Assembly: GCA_965237415.1 (NCBI GenBank)
Contig: CBDEFM010000002.1
Location: forward strand, 2,624,001 to 2,688,000
Direction of reading: 5' to 3'
DNA: 64,000 bases
DNA from: Alphaproteobacteria bacterium
GTDB lineage: Bacteria > Pseudomonadota > Alphaproteobacteria > UBA828
Shown: positions 13,384-40,583 of the stretch, piece after piece
Layout: every line of letters starts with the position of its first letter
Position numbering within the stretch: position 1 is the first letter of the stretch
The notes under the pieces: generated by a model
What the model saw: only the letters and a program-made list of their open reading frames with translations
The model's database searches: none
What the model was told of the DNA's origin: nothing
Program-made: the position numbers and the translations under genes

Positions 13384-14208
13384 GTGATGAGCGAGTACCT
13401 ACCATATTCGGGCACTCATTCGATCCAAGAAGCGGTCATTGCGATTCATTTCCGGGGCAGAGTATCCCCCGAAGAAGTAAGGTATGCTAGGGACACCGCT
13501 AAGGCCGAGCTAGATAGTGTTCTTCCGCGGCTAAACGAACATCATCAAGTGCAAGAAATTAAGATAGAGCAGGGGCAGCTTTCTCAATTGTCTGGAGAGC
13601 CTCGCCTCGTAGGCTTTGAGCTATCGAAAGTGCAGGCAGATGCCAAACCGGCTCGCGTTCTTCGCTTGTTTGAAAACATGATAACCGTTAATTTTTTGCA
13701 GTACAAGGACTGGGGAACGACCCTGACTGCTAGTCTCGGGTATACCAAACTATTGTTGCAGGCCGTCAAACTTCCTGCAAACCCAGTTCAGGCGTTCAGC
13801 TTGAGGTACATTGATCGGTACACGTATGACGGCTCGTTGAATGAACCTAACGCTGGACTCCTTCTTCGGAAAGGAAACGACTACATAGCGCCGTCTTGTT
13901 TCGGCGCAGGTCCATTGTGGCATTGCCATTCTGGTTGGTTTGAGGCACTCAACAGTGTCGATAAGATCCTTAACCAACTCAATGTTGGAAGTACGATTGT
14001 TGATCAAGTTTCGACAGTTACTATTGACCACAATGCGATCTGCCAATTAAGTTTACCTCGACAATCCATTGAGGCTCTCTTCGAACCCCCGTCAGGGAAG
14101 GACGCTGGGATTGAATACGCGCTAGACCGCCTTCATGACAAGAATGGAGATATATTGAGGAACATGCTTGTGCCCGAGATGCTGGATAGGATTGGACTTC
14201 AAGCATGA
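13384..14208 (+). CDS. TIGR04255 family protein (sporadically distributed, unknown function)
   Basis: N-terminal HSIQEAVIAIHF, central Y.DW, SLRYIDRY motif and late TIDH; lower GC than flanks. Confidence 0.7.
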   Translation: MMSEYLPYSGTHSIQEAVIAIHFRGRVSPEEVRYARDTAKAELDSVLPRLNEHHQVQEIKIEQGQLSQLSGEPRLVGFELSKVQADAKPARVLRLFENMITVNFLQYKDWGTTLTASLGYTKLLLQAVKLPANPVQAFSLRYIDRYTYDGSLNEPNAGLLLRKGNDYIAPSCFGAGPLWHCHSGWFEALNSVDKILNQLNVGSTIVDQVSTVTIDHNAICQLSLPRQSIEALFEPPSGKDAGIEYALDRLHDKNGDILRNMLVPEMLDRIGLQA

Positions 14209-14759
14209 CTGCGTCTAATTCGGAATTGAATTATCAGACCTCCATGCTTGGGGCAATATCGTACGACATGGGCGTAGAGGAAATTGGCCGTGTGGAATGG
14301 CCTCAAATAACAGATTTAGAAGATTGTTCGGTTAAATTGATCGGAGAAAAACTTGTCTTAATTACCGCGGTTGCGCCTTTCGAGAAGATGACGGTTGCGC
14401 CGCCGACGCTTTCAACGGTGCATAAACTGACAATGAAATTGAAATCTCTTCAGAATATGCCCGATAACGAAAAATGGCCTGGATCCACCTGGCCCAGCGC
14501 TCAAGCCTTTGAGGACGCACATCTGTTCATTCATCGCTCAACTTTAAGCTCGATTCCGACACCTGAGGTCAAATTAGCAAACGATGGCGAAATAAATTTC
14601 CTGTGGACGGGAAATGAGGTTCATGTTGATTTAGGATTCTATGGAACGGGCGCGTTTAGCTATTTTGCGCGCGGAAATGATGAACGAAGGCTCCACGGAG
14701 AATGTGTGCCGGCATCAAAAGGTTTGCCGCAGGAAATAGTGGCGCTGTTCGCGGCTTAG
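14205..14759 (+). CDS. hypothetical protein, middle gene of triplet
   Basis: ATGA overlap with upstream gene; C-terminal domain W.GS..PS..A...A..F...P......DGEI.F.W. Confidence 0.7.
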   Translation: MTASNSELNYQTSMLGAISYDMGVEEIGRVEWPQITDLEDCSVKLIGEKLVLITAVAPFEKMTVAPPTLSTVHKLTMKLKSLQNMPDNEKWPGSTWPSAQAFEDAHLFIHRSTLSSIPTPEVKLANDGEINFLWTGNEVHVDLGFYGTGAFSYFARGNDERRLHGECVPASKGLPQEIVALFAA

Positions 14760-14766
14760 TTCAACA

Positions 14767-15258
14767 TTGACAGGCTCTTCTCCCCACCTAGATGAATATA
14801 CTAGTGCCACACCGGATATTTCACCCGGAGTTGTCGAGGATTCTGAACTCCTACTTCGCGAGATGTTTAATCCCCATCACGTGAAGAATGGGAAACTTCT
14901 CGAAACAGCGATATCCCTAGACGATTTGCTATCAAGAGGGTTTTCTGTTCATCGAATTACGTACGTGAGTCGAGAACTCGTCAAAGGGTCAATGAAGGAA
15001 CGCTTTTCAAGACCGAGACGGGGACCAGCCTGGAAAGAAGAGGGAGTGGCGAGACTACAAACTGGCGCAGTTCGCCGCCTTCGAGTCGATGACCAACAGG
15101 CCCTAGTGGTGATCGATACGGCAGACGCAAGTAATCAGGGACACGCCAGCATATACGCTAAGGCGCCGGACATTGGCAAAGCGCATGCGCGGGAACTGCG
15201 GTCACTATTGCTGCCACTCTTGCAGGAAAGAATGTCCGTAGATCAAGCGTTTGAGTAG
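14767..15258 (+). CDS. hypothetical protein, possible ADP-ribosyltransferase/RES-like fold toxin
   Basis: TTG start, 7 bp gap after previous stop; pattern ELLLR...GFSVHR...GHASI. Fold assignment is inference. Confidence 0.55.
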   Translation: MTGSSPHLDEYTSATPDISPGVVEDSELLLREMFNPHHVKNGKLLETAISLDDLLSRGFSVHRITYVSRELVKGSMKERFSRPRRGPAWKEEGVARLQTGAVRRLRVDDQQALVVIDTADASNQGHASIYAKAPDIGKAHARELRSLLLPLLQERMSVDQAFE

Positions 15259-15286: not shown

Positions 15287-16711
15287 TCACGCCCGCCGTA
15301 ACTCCACGATGGATTCGTAGAGTGTCCCACCATTCGCCTTGCCGGCACGAACACTTGACTCGACGATGCTGCTACCGACCCGGGTTTCGCGGGGAACGTG
15401 AATTTCTATCACCCGGAAGCCGCGCGATTCAGCGATGGCGGCGAGGAAGCGATCGGTCGGGATCGGCACCCCCTGCAAGATGGAGTTGCCGATGACGACC
15501 AGGGCGGTCGCCTTCGGACGCAAGCACCAGGCCGCACCGTCGAGGAAGCGGGCACAGTCGTTGAAATACTGAGCCGCGTAGTTGGCCCAGCCGTTGCCGC
15601 CGTAGACGCCCTTGTCGGGGTTCCGCTGCCGCACCGTGTCGATGGCCTCTCGAATCGCGCTGTCGTCGATGGAGGGGTCGAGGTCGATCCGCGCTTCGTC
15701 ACGGGCGTTCTGCCAGTAGGTGCCGAAGTTGAGCTCTTCCAGCCGCTTCATCTCGCGTGGTGCGGCGCAGAATCCCAGCCAGTAGAGGTGCGGGCGCGTG
15801 TTGCGGTTGTAGTGGTAGTTGTTGAGATAGGGCGGTGAGGTGACGAGCAGGTCCACGCTTTCCGCCGGGATCGCACTGTAGCCGTCGAAGAACGAGCGCT
15901 CGAAGACTCGCCCGTCCCCTCGCTCGGGGTTCTCGCGCGCGCCGCGATACCAGGCGGCATCGTCCGCCATCTGACGGAGCTTGGCCGCAATGGCACCTGC
16001 CACGTCGTCATCCACGACCTCCGGCCGCCCGACCGACGCCTTGCGACCGAGGCTCGGCTCGTAGGAATAGTTTGAGTAACCCACCATTGTCGCCGCAAAG
16101 GCGAGACGGAATAGGCTGGCGATCGGCGTCTCCAGCGGCGCCATGAAATCGAAGGCCAAGAGGACCTTGCGCTCGACCGCCGGGCTGTAGAACGGCGCCC
16201 GCGTGCGGAAGGCGGCGGGAGGCACCGCCTCGGGCGCGCAGCCTGCGTGCTCGCTATCCTCCATGAACGCAACGAATTCCGCGACGGAGGCCCTGAGCTG
16301 CGCGGGCTCCAGCCGATGGGCCCCTAACTTCGTCCGCGCGGCGAAAGCAGCGTAGGGATTGATTTCGAAGCCGATAGCCTCGTGGCCTGCGAGGTCGGCT
16401 TCGATCAGCGTCGTGCCGACGCCGGCGAAGGGATCGAGCACCACGCCCTGCTCCGGCCCCGACAAGTGACGGTCCAGCGCGTCCTGAACGAACTGCCGGG
16501 AAAAGCCCGCGATCCAGGGAACCCACCGGTGCACCGGCGTCTCCCGGTTGGCCATGAAGGCGGGGTCGCGGAATCCTCCGCGCTGGGGAGCCCGGCCGTC
16601 GGTGACTTCAGGCGGCCGGTCCCCCAAGGGCGAACCGCTATCTTCCCGTTCACGTCGTGCGCCGACGCGGTCTTCGAACTGAAACTCTGCCTGTCGCGGA
16701 TGCTGCGGCAT
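15287..16711 (-). CDS. DNA methyltransferase, N4-cytosine type, alpha motif order (resembles M.AvaI/M.BsoBI group)
   Basis: HRWVPWIAGFS, motif I DPFAGVGTT preceding motif IV TSPPY; start may lie further downstream. Confidence 0.85.
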   Translation of the reverse strand: MPQHPRQAEFQFEDRVGARREREDSGSPLGDRPPEVTDGRAPQRGGFRDPAFMANRETPVHRWVPWIAGFSRQFVQDALDRHLSGPEQGVVLDPFAGVGTTLIEADLAGHEAIGFEINPYAAFAARTKLGAHRLEPAQLRASVAEFVAFMEDSEHAGCAPEAVPPAAFRTRAPFYSPAVERKVLLAFDFMAPLETPIASLFRLAFAATMVGYSNYSYEPSLGRKASVGRPEVVDDDVAGAIAAKLRQMADDAAWYRGARENPERGDGRVFERSFFDGYSAIPAESVDLLVTSPPYLNNYHYNRNTRPHLYWLGFCAAPREMKRLEELNFGTYWQNARDEARIDLDPSIDDSAIREAIDTVRQRNPDKGVYGGNGWANYAAQYFNDCARFLDGAAWCLRPKATALVVIGNSILQGVPIPTDRFLAAIAESRGFRVIEIHVPRETRVGSSIVESSVRAGKANGGTLYESIVELRRA

Positions 16712-38029: not shown

Positions 38030-38881
38030 TCAGCCGACCCGGGCCATGACGCCGCCGTCCACCGGGAGTGCGACGCCGGTGATGAATCGGGCGGCGTCGG
38101 AGGCGAGAAAGAGCGAAGCCTGGGCGACGTCCCAGGCGCTGCCCATGCCGCCCCTGAGCGGGGTCCAGGTGTCGCGGGTGGCGGCGATCTCCTCGCGCGG
38201 GCGGCCGTAGCGGCGGGCTTGCGTGTCCACCGCCATGGGCGTGTCCATGTAGCCCGGCAGGATGGCGTTCACGCGCACGCCGTCGGGCGCGCAGTCTAGC
38301 GCGAGCTGGCGGGAGAAGGCGATCATCCCTGCCTTGCTCGTCTTGTAGGTCACGGACTTGTAGTCGACCACCGCCGCGATCGACGAGATATTGGTGATCA
38401 CGCCGCTACCCTGGCTTTGCATGACTGGGACGACGTGCTTGCAGGCCATCACCGTGCCGCGCAGGTTGATCGCCATCACCCGGTCGAAGCTCGCCTCGTC
38501 GAGGTCCGCGAGCGGCGAATCCCCGCCCGTATAGGCGACGCCCACGTTGTTCTGCAGCACGTCGATGCGCCCGTGGCGCTCCACGATGGCCTGGACGACC
38601 GCGATCAGTGCCGCCTCCTCGGTCACGTCGGCGACCAGTGCCTCGGCGCTGCCGCCGTCGGCCTCGATCATGGTGGCAGTTTCCTCGGCCGATGCGCGGT
38701 CCCGGTCGAGCGCAATAACGTGCGCGCCGGCGCGGGCGAAGAGCATGCACGTGGCTCGGCCGTTGCCGATCACCGGCCCCGGCGTCTGGCCGGCGCCGGC
38801 CACGATCGCGACCCGGCCGTCGAGGCTCAGCGTCGGGCTTTGCCAGGGTTCCGCGCTGGCGGCGGAGGCTTCGTCGGTCAT
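38030..38881 (-). CDS. SDR family oxidoreductase
   Basis: GAGQTPGPVIGNGRA, NNVG, YKTSK, NAILPG.MDTPM. Confidence 0.88.
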   Translation of the reverse strand: MTDEASAASAEPWQSPTLSLDGRVAIVAGAGQTPGPVIGNGRATCMLFARAGAHVIALDRDRASAEETATMIEADGGSAEALVADVTEEAALIAVVQAIVERHGRIDVLQNNVGVAYTGGDSPLADLDEASFDRVMAINLRGTVMACKHVVPVMQSQGSGVITNISSIAAVVDYKSVTYKTSKAGMIAFSRQLALDCAPDGVRVNAILPGYMDTPMAVDTQARRYGRPREEIAATRDTWTPLRGGMGSAWDVAQASLFLASDAARFITGVALPVDGGVMARVG

Positions 38882-39134
38882 GGCGATGTCCGGGTTCGCG
38901 GTGGAAAGAGGACCAAGAGGCTCGACAGGGGCGCGCGGCTTGTCAAGGCGGACGATACATAGCAGGGAGGGTGGGCAAAGTGGATGCCGGTCCCCTGTCA
39001 GCCCACAGCCTACGATATGTTGGGAGCTGATCATTCACGATCCCCTCCAAAGCGCCGATGCCCCAAGTTGTCTGATCTAGGCTTCCGGTTGATACTTTCT
39101 AATGATGGCTTGATCTCAACGAGCATTGACTTAT

Positions 39135-39683
39135 ATGTCAATAGCTGCTCAAGTACAATCGCTGGTGAACGCCAAGCGTCTACATTACGTGGAACCCCTT
39201 GACGCCAGCTTGGAGGTGAAGCGCGTCATGGTGGTGTCAGATGAAGTCCAGGAATTGCTCGATGGTCCTTGGTCCACTGGAGGTCTAGCGCGGCGCGCAA
39301 ACCGCCTTCGGGCCGACTTAGAGATGTTCGTCAGGGGACAGGTTCTGGGAATCTCGATGACACCGTACAGACACAAATCAGCGTATATGGGGCTACTGGA
39401 TCCCCCTGAGCGAGGCTTCTGGGATATCAGAAGCCGCGATCCGAAACCTGCTTTGCGAGTCTTGGGGCATTTCGCGGACGTGAACTTGTTTGTAGCATTG
39501 GTTTGGCACCCACGATCTGTCGAGGTGGATGGTAAACCGCCTTTAGGCGAAGCGCGAGGGCTGAATTGGGAGATGGCTAAACTGCAGTGTGAAGAAATGT
39601 GGAAAGGGCTATTTCCAAACCACCTACCGAAAACCAGGGAGAAGATCGGTGACCTTATCGGCGAGAACACATTTTTGGTCTGA
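39135..39683 (+). CDS. putative RelE/HigB-like toxin
   Basis: C-terminal pattern L.PPERGFWDIRSRDPKPALRVLGHF resembles RelE-superfamily strands; lies upstream of an HTH gene; lower GC. Confidence 0.6.
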   Translation: MSIAAQVQSLVNAKRLHYVEPLDASLEVKRVMVVSDEVQELLDGPWSTGGLARRANRLRADLEMFVRGQVLGISMTPYRHKSAYMGLLDPPERGFWDIRSRDPKPALRVLGHFADVNLFVALVWHPRSVEVDGKPPLGEARGLNWEMAKLQCEEMWKGLFPNHLPKTREKIGDLIGENTFLV

Positions 39684-40092
39684 GATCGAGGACCTGGATG
39701 CTCGCATACCAGCGGAAAAGCTTGAGTACCTCAGCGAGCGGTTCCGCAATGACCTATACGACTTCGTTCTGCAGAAATTTATGGAGCAAGGGGAGAAGCG
39801 CGGACTAAACCAGGCGCAACTAGCGAGAAGGCTCTCTTACGACCCCGGTCGTCTCAACAGACTGCTGGGAGCGCCCGGGAATTGGACGCTGGGCACGGTG
39901 AGCGACTTGCTCGTAGGAATTTCCGGTGAGTCCTTGGACCTTCAAGCTACCGAAGTTCGGGGAAATACCGTGCGGAATTTTAGCGTACACGATCTGCTAG
40001 ACTCCGGGTCGGGCCTCACTATCGAGAGACGCAACCCGGAGTCGGTGGTAACAGGCAGCGTGAACACGATTAGGATAGCGCACGTCCAATGA
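39649..40092 (+). CDS. XRE-type HTH protein (HigA-like antitoxin) with C-terminal extension
   Basis: GLNQAQLARRLSYDPGRLNRLLGAPGNWTLGTVSDL; GTG 39649 preceded by AGGGAGA; overlaps the toxin gene. Confidence 0.7.
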   Translation: MTLSARTHFWSEIEDLDARIPAEKLEYLSERFRNDLYDFVLQKFMEQGEKRGLNQAQLARRLSYDPGRLNRLLGAPGNWTLGTVSDLLVGISGESLDLQATEVRGNTVRNFSVHDLLDSGSGLTIERRNPESVVTGSVNTIRIAHVQ

Positions 40093-40499
40093 CTGACAAG
40101 GATGCTCTAAAGGTGAAAATCCTGTCTGTCGTCGTGTGTGACGATGTGCGGGAGGAGAACAATGGAAAGGAAATCCTAATTGGAGTGTATAGTGGTGCGA
40201 TAACTGTTCATATGATTCCAAGTTTACCCTTACCTCTGAGATGTTGGGTTAATCTAACGATTCAAGGGCCGAGCAAGGTCAAATTGTATTTTAGAGCAAG
40301 GGATCATGACAATAAGGAGATATTTCAGGCACAATTAGAAACCGGGACGGAAGACGAGATAGGTATGGGAAGTATCCCCTTAGGACCGATCATATACACA
40401 CTTAGAGATCCTGAGGGGAGCCTAAAAGTCGACTATAAGGAAGGAGAAGGCGATTGGGCCAATATCATTACAAAGAGTGTAAAATACCAAAGTAAATGA
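40089..40499 (+). CDS. DUF6941-like beta-rich protein
   Basis: N-terminal VVCDDVREENNGKEILIGVY signature; ATGA overlap with HTH gene; very AT-rich for this genome. Confidence 0.65.
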   Translation: MTDKDALKVKILSVVVCDDVREENNGKEILIGVYSGAITVHMIPSLPLPLRCWVNLTIQGPSKVKLYFRARDHDNKEIFQAQLETGTEDEIGMGSIPLGPIIYTLRDPEGSLKVDYKEGEGDWANIITKSVKYQSK

Positions 40500-40583
40500 A
40501 TTTCGGAATGCCACTCGCTACCGTTTGTTGCACAAACGTCGCGTGTAGACCCTAATCCGACACCGCACCCGGAGCATTGAGCC

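Follow-up and report, generated by a model that had tools for sequence, protein, structure and literature searches.

On a low-GC island within a 64,000-nucleotide (nt) stretch of contig CBDEFM010000002.1, from an alphaproteobacterium of lineage UBA828 (the window; positions are counted from its first letter), three overlapping open reading frames (ORF1, ORF2 and ORF3) encode a protein predicted to adopt the RelE/HigB fold, a helix-turn-helix (HTH) protein of the XRE type with a variable C-terminal tail, and an all-β protein related to the Pfam family DUF6941. The same gene order recurs in related genomes, and DUF6941-like genes of the same branch also stand behind toxin–antitoxin (TA) pairs of other families. 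We tentatively read this DUF6941-branch module as a three-gene type II TA system of higBA architecture in which ORF3 would hold the tail of the antitoxin, a reading to which we give slightly less than an even chance; in TA systems, the DUF6941 protein may act as a helper or sensor of a new kind, distinct from SecB.

The proposal builds on tripartite toxin–antitoxin–chaperone (TAC) systems. SecB-like chaperones associate with HigA, MqsA and HicB antitoxins (PMC3581621). The antitoxin element involved, the ChAD, is a C-terminal extension, disordered and variable, whose β strands join the sheet of the chaperone; the SecB-like chaperones can be diverted by a phage protein, and in some TAC systems the ChAD elements are reported to be ClpXP-dependent (10.1101/2024.02.24.581848).

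Three overlapping genes on a low-GC accessory island

The 500-nt bins covering 39000-40499 have GC contents of 0.53, 0.54 and 0.46, against 0.67-0.71 (about 0.69) in the flanking bins, and this low-GC stretch is occupied by three overlapping ORFs on the same strand (Table 1). ORF1 and ORF2 overlap by 35 nt (39649-39683), and the ORF2 stop codon overlaps the ORF3 start codon as ATGA (40089-40092), an arrangement by which ORF3 is predicted to be translationally coupled to ORF2. A first-pass annotation of this DNA had described an AT-rich, overlapping, toxin-first operon here, and its coordinates, both overlaps and the 182-amino-acid (aa) length of ORF1 are borne out by the sequence. An alternative start of ORF1, an in-frame TTG upstream at 39126, would give a protein of 185 aa. 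A GGAG stands 7 nt before the GTG start of ORF2, a start supported by the closest homologues of the protein, which are likewise 147 aa long and align from residue 1. All three are real genes and not chance frames, because they have 52, 75 and 28 database homologues, respectively, and the structural models of ORF1 and ORF3 reach mean predicted local distance difference test (pLDDT) scores of 95.3 and 92.5.

An empty site was found in public run X5, in which a contig at a depth of 108.8 joins position 38911 to 40583, with 123 other letters replacing the 1671 nt of the island; an island-bearing contig of the same run has a depth of 4.04. The empty-site contig places the bounds of the island at about 38912-40582 and indicates that its carriage varies among close relatives. 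No convincing direct or inverted repeats were found bounding the island, and a consensus scan gave neither a promoter upstream of ORF1 nor a terminator. Contigs from RNA libraries (runs X3 and X4) that span the island were rejected as evidence of expression, since contigs show neither transcription, transcript ends nor strand.

ORF1 has a predicted RelE/HigB fold outside known sequence families

No family of Pfam, NCBIfam, PADLOC or PHROGs matches ORF1. Nor does any of 33 aligned homologues have a Pfam match at E up to 0.01, and the database homologues, typically 175-182 aa long, are all unnamed or "hypothetical". Alignment of its profile by hhalign to three Gp49-family toxins was not significant (E 0.078), the expected strand region being aligned, and a search of the profile against PDB sequences returned a chance match only, which was rejected, and no toxin. 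Though no sequence model detects ORF1, the RelE/HigB likeness first proposed from the letters is upheld by the AlphaFold2 model built on its own alignment (pTM 0.91). In an all-against-all comparison with VIA-align, the model superimposes on Streptococcus pneumoniae HigB (6af3_A) with a Z score of 10.9 and a root mean square deviation (rmsd) of 2.3 Å for 105 of 114 residues, and on Mycobacterium tuberculosis HigB1 on the ribosome (7nbu_Y) with a Z score of 8.4; RelE/ParE-type TA entries make up 22 of the 23 top rows. A Foldseek search of the PDB, the check suggested in the first pass, also placed HigB families at the top, led by S. pneumoniae HigB (6af4_A; E 3e-3, TM score 0.57 on the target) and including Vibrio cholerae HigB2 and M. 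tuberculosis HigB1, with no match reaching an E of 1e-3. The fold match spans model residues 29-161, at 15-18% sequence identity to S. pneumoniae HigB, and the remaining residues form an N-terminal (1-28) and a C-terminal (162-182, about 20 residues) addition. As modelled, ORF1 has the RelE/ParE fold, which is defined as a compact α/β fold with N-terminal helices against an antiparallel sheet of 4-5 strands, yet it falls within none of the sequence families of that fold.

The ORF1 alignment has 16 invariant columns, including R30, R99, R101, R108 and R127, and a conserved W-D-I-R-S-R-D-P motif. In the model, R99, R101, R108 and R127 lie on or near the strands formed by residues 96-100, 107-115 and 118-126, and their spacing (2, 7, 19) resembles that of K52, K54, R61 and R81, the catalytic set of Escherichia coli RelE.

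ORF2 resembles XRE-family antitoxins and carries a variable tail

The window copy of ORF2 gives a weak Pfam match to HTH_31 (E 0.012); among 40 aligned homologues, HTH_31 is matched by 24 and HTH_3 by 23, and with the profile of the family an alignment to the HipB antitoxin HTH is obtained (E 0.012). Judged by these matches, ORF2 has the Cro/C1-type HTH of XRE-family (HigA-like) antitoxins. In its alignment, conservation is strong throughout a core that reaches about residue 112 and contains an invariant L-L-x-A-P-G-N-W-T stretch; past this core, the tails of the family run for 20-100 residues with little sequence conservation. The HTH protein with a C-terminal tail foreseen in the first pass is thereby recovered, with a variable tail of about 35 residues in place of the estimated 45 or so, ending in the very residues quoted at the time.

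In 64 non-redundant antitoxins encoded upstream of DUF6941, Ser and Thr are enriched at distances of 12-16 residues from the C-terminus (in 19-29 of the 64 at each position) and hydrophobic residues at distances of 4-9 residues. A pattern comprising an S/T/G-rich segment, then alternating hydrophobic residues, then the end of the protein is present in 30 of these 64 tails, compared with 11.1 ± 3.0 in composition-matched shuffles, none of 1,000 of which reached 30, and with 11 of 64 for an internal control segment; we regard this as suggestive only, because the pattern was defined after the data had been seen and most tails share ancestry. ORF2-like antitoxins with no DUF6941 neighbour show it in 2 of 8 cases, a small sample. 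Complex prediction of ORF2 with ORF3 gave ipSAE values of 0.19 and 0.25 against a mark of 0.32, with no controls, and counts neither way.

Features of these tails also bear on a role of the opposite kind: DUF6941 might be an adaptor that hands the antitoxin tail to a protease and promotes toxin release, the reverse in sign of a chaperone. Short hydrophobic or Ala-rich sequences close many of the tails and look degron-like, a likeness judged by eye alone, and the ClpXP dependence reported for ChAD elements in some TAC systems (10.1101/2024.02.24.581848) is in line with such a role. However, an adaptor constitutively co-translated with its antitoxin would make the module self-toxic, and the one antitoxin with a shortened tail described below, at locus L004, has no third gene beside it, which fits dependence better than antagonism. 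We therefore consider an adaptor role improbable and retain the holding of the tail as the preferred reading.

A palindrome covers the ORF1 start codon

An 18-bp palindrome, ATTGAC-TTATAT-GTCAAT, contains the ORF1 ATG and occurs once in the window against an expectation of 0. In all fetched loci with the N-terminus of ORF1 present, which amount to 43 distinct start regions, TTGAC-N6-GTCAA at the ORF1 start is exact in 35 and has one mismatch in 6 more (41 of 43); the two misses are one script offset error and one degenerate copy. The first three residues of ORF1, M-S-I, are nearly invariant, probably because the palindrome covers them, and no Shine–Dalgarno sequence was found before the ATG. 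The palindrome is a candidate operator of the ORF2 HTH antitoxin, and the HTH recognition region of ORF2 homologues is co-invariant with it, which fits the operator reading.

The triplet is conserved in related genomes

A scan for the ORF1 motif in one genome per species returned 24 loci. Uncultured Alphaproteobacteria account for most of them, Gammaproteobacteria for a few, and an Alicyclobacillaceae metagenome-assembled genome for one. An ORF2 homologue directly follows ORF1 in all 24, the toxin and antitoxin genes of the pair overlapping by about 30 nt, and the third gene is DUF6941-like in 19 (18 recognised by the ORF3 profile, five of them in the profile's own alignment, and L015 by Pfam at E 4.6e-4). 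In L010, L019 and L022 the third gene encodes a member of another, unrelated family, with a length of about 217 aa (162 aa in L022), and L004 and L023 have no third gene; the L004 antitoxin is 132 aa long and lacks the end of the tail. A profile survey of the class found ORF1 in 11 of 400 other genomes and in 0 of 3 genomes of the same family. Analysis of 10 further class genomes gave a DUF6941 third gene by profile in 7 and by eye in 1 (L114), the 217-aa family in L108, an antitoxin fused to a DUF429-like domain in L111 and DUF3467 in L112, a tally of 11 entries against 10 genomes in which one figure is off by one.

Neither Pfam nor NCBIfam gave a match for the 217-aa family, and the Atlas clusters closest to it are unnamed. 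A possible relation of DUF3467 to SecB was supported neither by a PDB sequence search nor by the literature, and we make no claim of it.

The distribution of the triplet is sporadic, as for mobile cargo. In many loci (L001, L002, L006, L007, L016 and L021), a divergent IS1-family transposase gene lies about 100-130 nt upstream of the toxin gene (in L001 at L001:4006-4947, minus strand; PF03400, 32.4 bits), and the transposase-bearing loci also have, downstream of gene 3, a minus-strand gene for a small basic protein. Both genes are absent from the window. Transposons may carry the triplet as cargo. Several homologous modules are in decay: ORF1 is split by frameshifts in L005, L024 and L071 and interrupted by an inserted element in L019 and L110, the antitoxin being intact in each case.

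Mobility bears on the sceptical view that ORF3 is an unrelated passenger, or that there is no TA system at all, in which case ORF1 would have the RelE fold but no catalytic activity, and ORF2 would be an ordinary regulator for the genes of mobile elements. The adjoining IS1-family transposases, the failure of every family model to recognise ORF1 and the occurrence of DUF6941 away from TA pairs would all suit it. We nevertheless hold it to be most improbable: the three-gene order, with genes overlapping or nearly abutting, is kept down to about 35% toxin identity and across phyla, DUF6941 recurs behind Pfam-confirmed HicAB and Gp49–XRE pairs (below), five arginines are invariant in ORF1, and the disrupted ORF1 copies in L005, L019, L024 and L110 suggest a cost of carriage.

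ORF3 is a DUF6941-related β sandwich

ORF3 matches DUF6941 (PF22091) at 22.6 bits, below the 27-bit gathering cut-off. PF22091 is matched at E up to 0.01 by 19 of 29 aligned ORF3 homologues and carried by 14 of its 28 database homologues, and the ESM Atlas clusters nearest to ORF3 are DUF6941 (score 0.93), which points to ORF3 as a divergent branch of this family. The AlphaFold2 model of ORF3 has ten strands and no real helix. The first-pass annotation had called ORF3 DUF6941-like, β-rich and not SecB-like, and the PF22091 homologues, the ten-strand model and the lack of a SecB match agree with all three points: Pfam at E up to 1 gives DUF6941 and nothing else, and the listed fold matches include no SecB entry, an absence that alone is inconclusive. 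The structural matches were rejected as clues to function, since those to UNC119/PDE6D (TM score about 0.4, rmsd 7-8 Å) and those to Asf1 (Z 8.9) and SoxZ (Z 8.8), the latter from a search with 548 chains at Z 5 or more, are all generic to Ig-like sandwiches.

Clusters at 50% identity that match a profile of diverse DUF6941 members number 7,383 with an E limit of 1e-3 and 3,872 with a limit of 1e-10; the best 150 clusters listed are 123-174 aa long, each with one matched stretch. No function has been described for DUF6941, which the literature searched does not mention.

DUF6941 stands behind several TA families

Applied to 400 other genomes of the same phylum, the ORF3 profile picked out a DUF6941-like gene in 6, and in 5 of these the gene stands directly behind a small ORF and an antitoxin-like gene. 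These loci differ in the pair that precedes DUF6941: L027 encodes HicA, HicB and DUF6941, which exceed the Pfam cut-off at 30.6, 49.6 and 66.2 bits, respectively; L028 and L029 encode XRE HTH proteins (HTH_3, 56.6 and 48.9 bits) after ORFs of 195 and 137 aa that match no model; L030 has distant ORF1- and ORF2-like genes; and L031 encodes a protein that is MqsA-like by a TIGR03830 match falling short of the cut-off (E 4e-5). Metagenomes were scanned with the motif G-K-[ED]-[IL]-L-I-G-V-Y, which yielded 71 loci in 47 clusters at 90% identity, 32 of them with at least 1000 nt of upstream sequence. DUF6941 lies behind a TA-like pair in 30 of these 32 clusters; 22 have both ORF1- and ORF2-like genes, 3 only an ORF2-like gene by profile, 1 only an ORF1-like gene and 6 neither. 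One of the 6, L040, has Gp49 (38.9 bits) with a 201-aa XRE antitoxin whose HTH ends near residue 94; L054 is of the Gp49–XRE type by alignment and Pfam HTH, L080 has a HicAB module, and L092 is TA-like by eye. Both DUF6941 matches in viral contigs are TA-type triplets, one of them adjoining a phage-repressor-like gene (by eye), and no ORF1 homologue was confirmed among 26 pattern matches in viral contigs. In another phylum, a DUF6941-like gene was found in 4 of 400 genomes and was TA-linked in 1, at a locus homologous to the MqsA-like module of L031 with 40-45% identity for both partners. Collectively, the same third-protein family accompanies several TA families (ORF1/ORF2-like, HicAB, Gp49–XRE and MqsA-like).

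Partner antitoxins of the other families extend 55-105 residues past their domains. The Pfam domains of the L027 HicB end at residue 107 of 164, the HTH of Gp49-partner XRE antitoxins ends near residue 94 of 201-205, and the MqsA-like proteins encoded before DUF6941 have 55-70 residues beyond the shared region.

These extensions help to weigh a further alternative, namely that the system is indeed three-part and DUF6941, in place of holding the tail, binds either toxin or folded TA complex, or serves purely as a trigger sensor or specificity subunit swapped between systems. What occupies the third position varies (DUF6941, the 217-aa family, DUF3467 or a fused DUF429-like domain) while toxin and antitoxin stay constant, as is typical of exchangeable sensors; the ORF1 segments on either side of the HigB core (29-161) could be a docking site; and the XRE proteins of L028 and L029, with the HTH at the very C-terminus, have no C-terminal tail to hold. 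Against this, gene 3 is coupled to the antitoxin gene and not to the toxin gene, long C-terminal extensions are present on antitoxins of four families beside DUF6941, and the third gene and the tail end are lost together in L004. We judge this alternative unlikely, though deserving of attention, and keep to tail holding as our preferred interpretation.

As separate observations made by eye in the other phylum, one DUF6941-like gene (L121:1474-1956) follows a ComM/Mg-chelatase-like gene, and another (L122:1471-1860) follows a gene for a metallopeptidase-like protein (H-E-x-x-H) in a restriction-modification-like neighbourhood.

Table 1. Coordinates of the features described; locus-prefixed positions refer to loci outside the window
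Feature	Coordinates	Strand	Description
Low-GC accessory island	38912..40582	.	GC drop and empty-site joint; holds all three genes
ORF1	39135..39683	+	182 aa from ATG; RelE/HigB-fold protein (predicted), putative toxin
ORF2	39649..40092	+	147 aa from GTG; HTH protein of the XRE type, putative antitoxin and repressor
ORF3	40089..40499	+	136 aa; DUF6941-related all-β sandwich protein (predicted)
Palindrome	39125..39142	+	18 bp, ATTGAC-TTATAT-GTCAAT; contains ORF1 ATG; candidate operator
ORF2 C-terminal tail	39985..40089	+	Residues ~113-147 (~35); variable, Ser/Thr-rich, short alternating-hydrophobic end
217-aa third-gene family	L010:3991-4644, L019:5889-6554, L022:5978-6466, L108:379-1032		Replaces DUF6941 after ORF1/ORF2-like pairs
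Fused antitoxin	L111:1712-3208		ORF2-like antitoxin fused to ~335-aa C-terminal region; weak DUF429 match, 24.1 bits
DUF3467-like third gene	L112:969-1277		102 aa; 24.8 bits (cut-off 25)

Neighbouring genes and a second island

The island is flanked by high-GC, housekeeping-type ORFs, named by eye as minus-strand short-chain dehydrogenase-like and luciferase-like oxidoreductase-like. The dehydrogenase-like ORF, 334 aa at 38030-39034 on the minus strand, probably has its true start further in, at the Met before "TDEAS", because its first 51 or so codons would otherwise enter the island past the left edge at 38912. The module had been described as the second AT-rich three-gene operon of the window, and a first one can indeed be located at 13384-15258 (GC 0.47-0.54), where three co-oriented, abutting ORFs (274, 184 and 163 aa) have an ATGA overlap at 14205-14208 and no Pfam match at E up to 0.01. 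That island adjoins a 474-aa minus-strand ORF (15287-16711) that is DNA methyltransferase-like by eye, and its sequence is unrelated to that of the island at 38912-40582. A relation of the 217-aa third-gene family to its 274-aa protein was considered and rejected, as no similarity was found.

A proposed mechanism and its scope

We propose that the island was acquired horizontally as a three-gene type II TA module. ORF1 would be a toxin of RelE/HigB fold that most likely cleaves mRNA as a ribosome-dependent endonuclease, and ORF2 an HTH antitoxin that would neutralise it and would probably also repress the operon via TTGAC-N6-GTCAA over the toxin start codon. ORF3 would be a dedicated accessory, co-made with the antitoxin through translational coupling, that grips the disordered C-terminal tail of ORF2 and shields the antitoxin from aggregation or proteolysis, this being the presumed direction of its effect; if ORF3 were lost or diverted, for instance by a phage protein or stress, the toxin would be freed. 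The module would then work as a SecB-type TAC system with an unrelated third protein. We infer the toxicity of ORF1, and the tail binding and chaperone or sensor role of ORF3, from the gene order, the modularity of the third gene and the features of the tail, and the mechanistic step itself is plausible by analogy with TAC systems.

Several observations weigh against this proposal. ORF1 has no detectable sequence relation to known toxins by family models or hhalign, which leaves its catalytic competence putative. The ORF2 tail lacks the aromatic pattern described for SecB ChADs, the tail pattern of the family is subject to the post hoc definition and common descent noted above, and L028 and L029 combine DUF6941 with tailless antitoxins. 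In the third position, loci elsewhere have the roughly 217-aa family (4 loci), DUF3467 (1), a fused DUF429-like domain (1) or nothing (2). No TA pair stands beside DUF6941 in L032 (genome) or in L063 and L086 (metagenome), and in the other phylum 3 of the 4 DUF6941 matches lie in unrelated contexts without a TA pair. The metagenome and viral scans, moreover, used one motif and so cover a single branch of this family, which comprises 7,383 clusters. Because of the non-TA loci elsewhere, we limit the TA linkage to the C-D-D-[VI]-R-x-E branch and do not extend it to the whole of DUF6941; the survey of DUF6941 neighbourhoods suggested in the first pass thus came out in favour of linkage for this branch and against it for DUF6941 outside the branch.

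A broader reading, which we offer as possible but would sooner doubt than accept, is that the C-D-D-[VI]-R-x-E branch of DUF6941 constitutes a second class of dedicated TA chaperones or sensors, structurally unrelated to SecB. Taken as a whole, it would have the β sandwich capture a C-terminal, strand-forming degron on at least four antitoxin families (ORF2-type XRE, Gp49-partner XRE, HicB and MqsA-like) and release it when a phage or stress client competes, so that the TAC principle would have evolved at least twice, and it would have ORF1 found a RelE-fold toxin family invisible to current models, with its operator exactly on the start codon.

If the proposal is true, a second, unrelated TAC partner would exist for the same antitoxin families, and guarding a labile antitoxin tail would be a general, convergently evolved design. 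The module would also add a RelE-fold toxin family undetected by current models and, placed on a start codon, a candidate operator of unusually high conservation, and it offers a first testable function for DUF6941 across its thousands of clusters. In the papers searched, tripartite TAC systems, which were recently shown to be phage sensors, are described only with SecB-like chaperones.

Comparison with known systems

The window module shares with TAC systems three co-oriented genes for a toxin, an antitoxin and a third protein, the same three families being found together in 19 of 24 loci; its third protein is not SecB-like, and for this reason the module is not a member of the TAC group as defined. 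In the abstracts and passages of the TA papers searched, whose supplements may list such third genes, neither DUF6941 nor any other non-SecB chaperone is mentioned.

The closest likeness is to HigB1–HigA1–Rv1957 of M. tuberculosis and HigBAC of E. coli, which have the same order of toxin, HTH antitoxin and third small protein. The modelled fold of ORF1 is that of HigB1 (7nbu_Y, Z 8.4), the antitoxin likewise has a variable, disordered C-terminal extension, and the third-partner family is likewise found with HigA-, HicB- and MqsA-type antitoxins (PMC3581621). Unlike in these systems, the third protein of the window is an all-β DUF6941 protein, the antitoxin tail lacks the aromatic ChAD pattern, and the putative toxin is missed by the Gp49 and HigB models. 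S. pneumoniae HigBA (6af3/6af4), the best structural match of ORF1, is also toxin-first with an HTH antitoxin, but the pneumococcal system has two genes, and ORF1, at 182 aa, has extra residues 1-28 and 162-182.

CmdTAC, an anti-phage system of E. coli, provides the functional model, in that its accessory guards an unstable antitoxin and senses phage proteins (PMC11618068; 10.1101/2024.02.24.581848). It differs in having an ADP-ribosyltransferase as toxin and a SecB-like accessory, and no homologue of ORF1 was confirmed in viral contigs. By analogy, the recurrence of DUF6941 behind several TA pairs mirrors the way in which SecB-like chaperones have joined several TA families.

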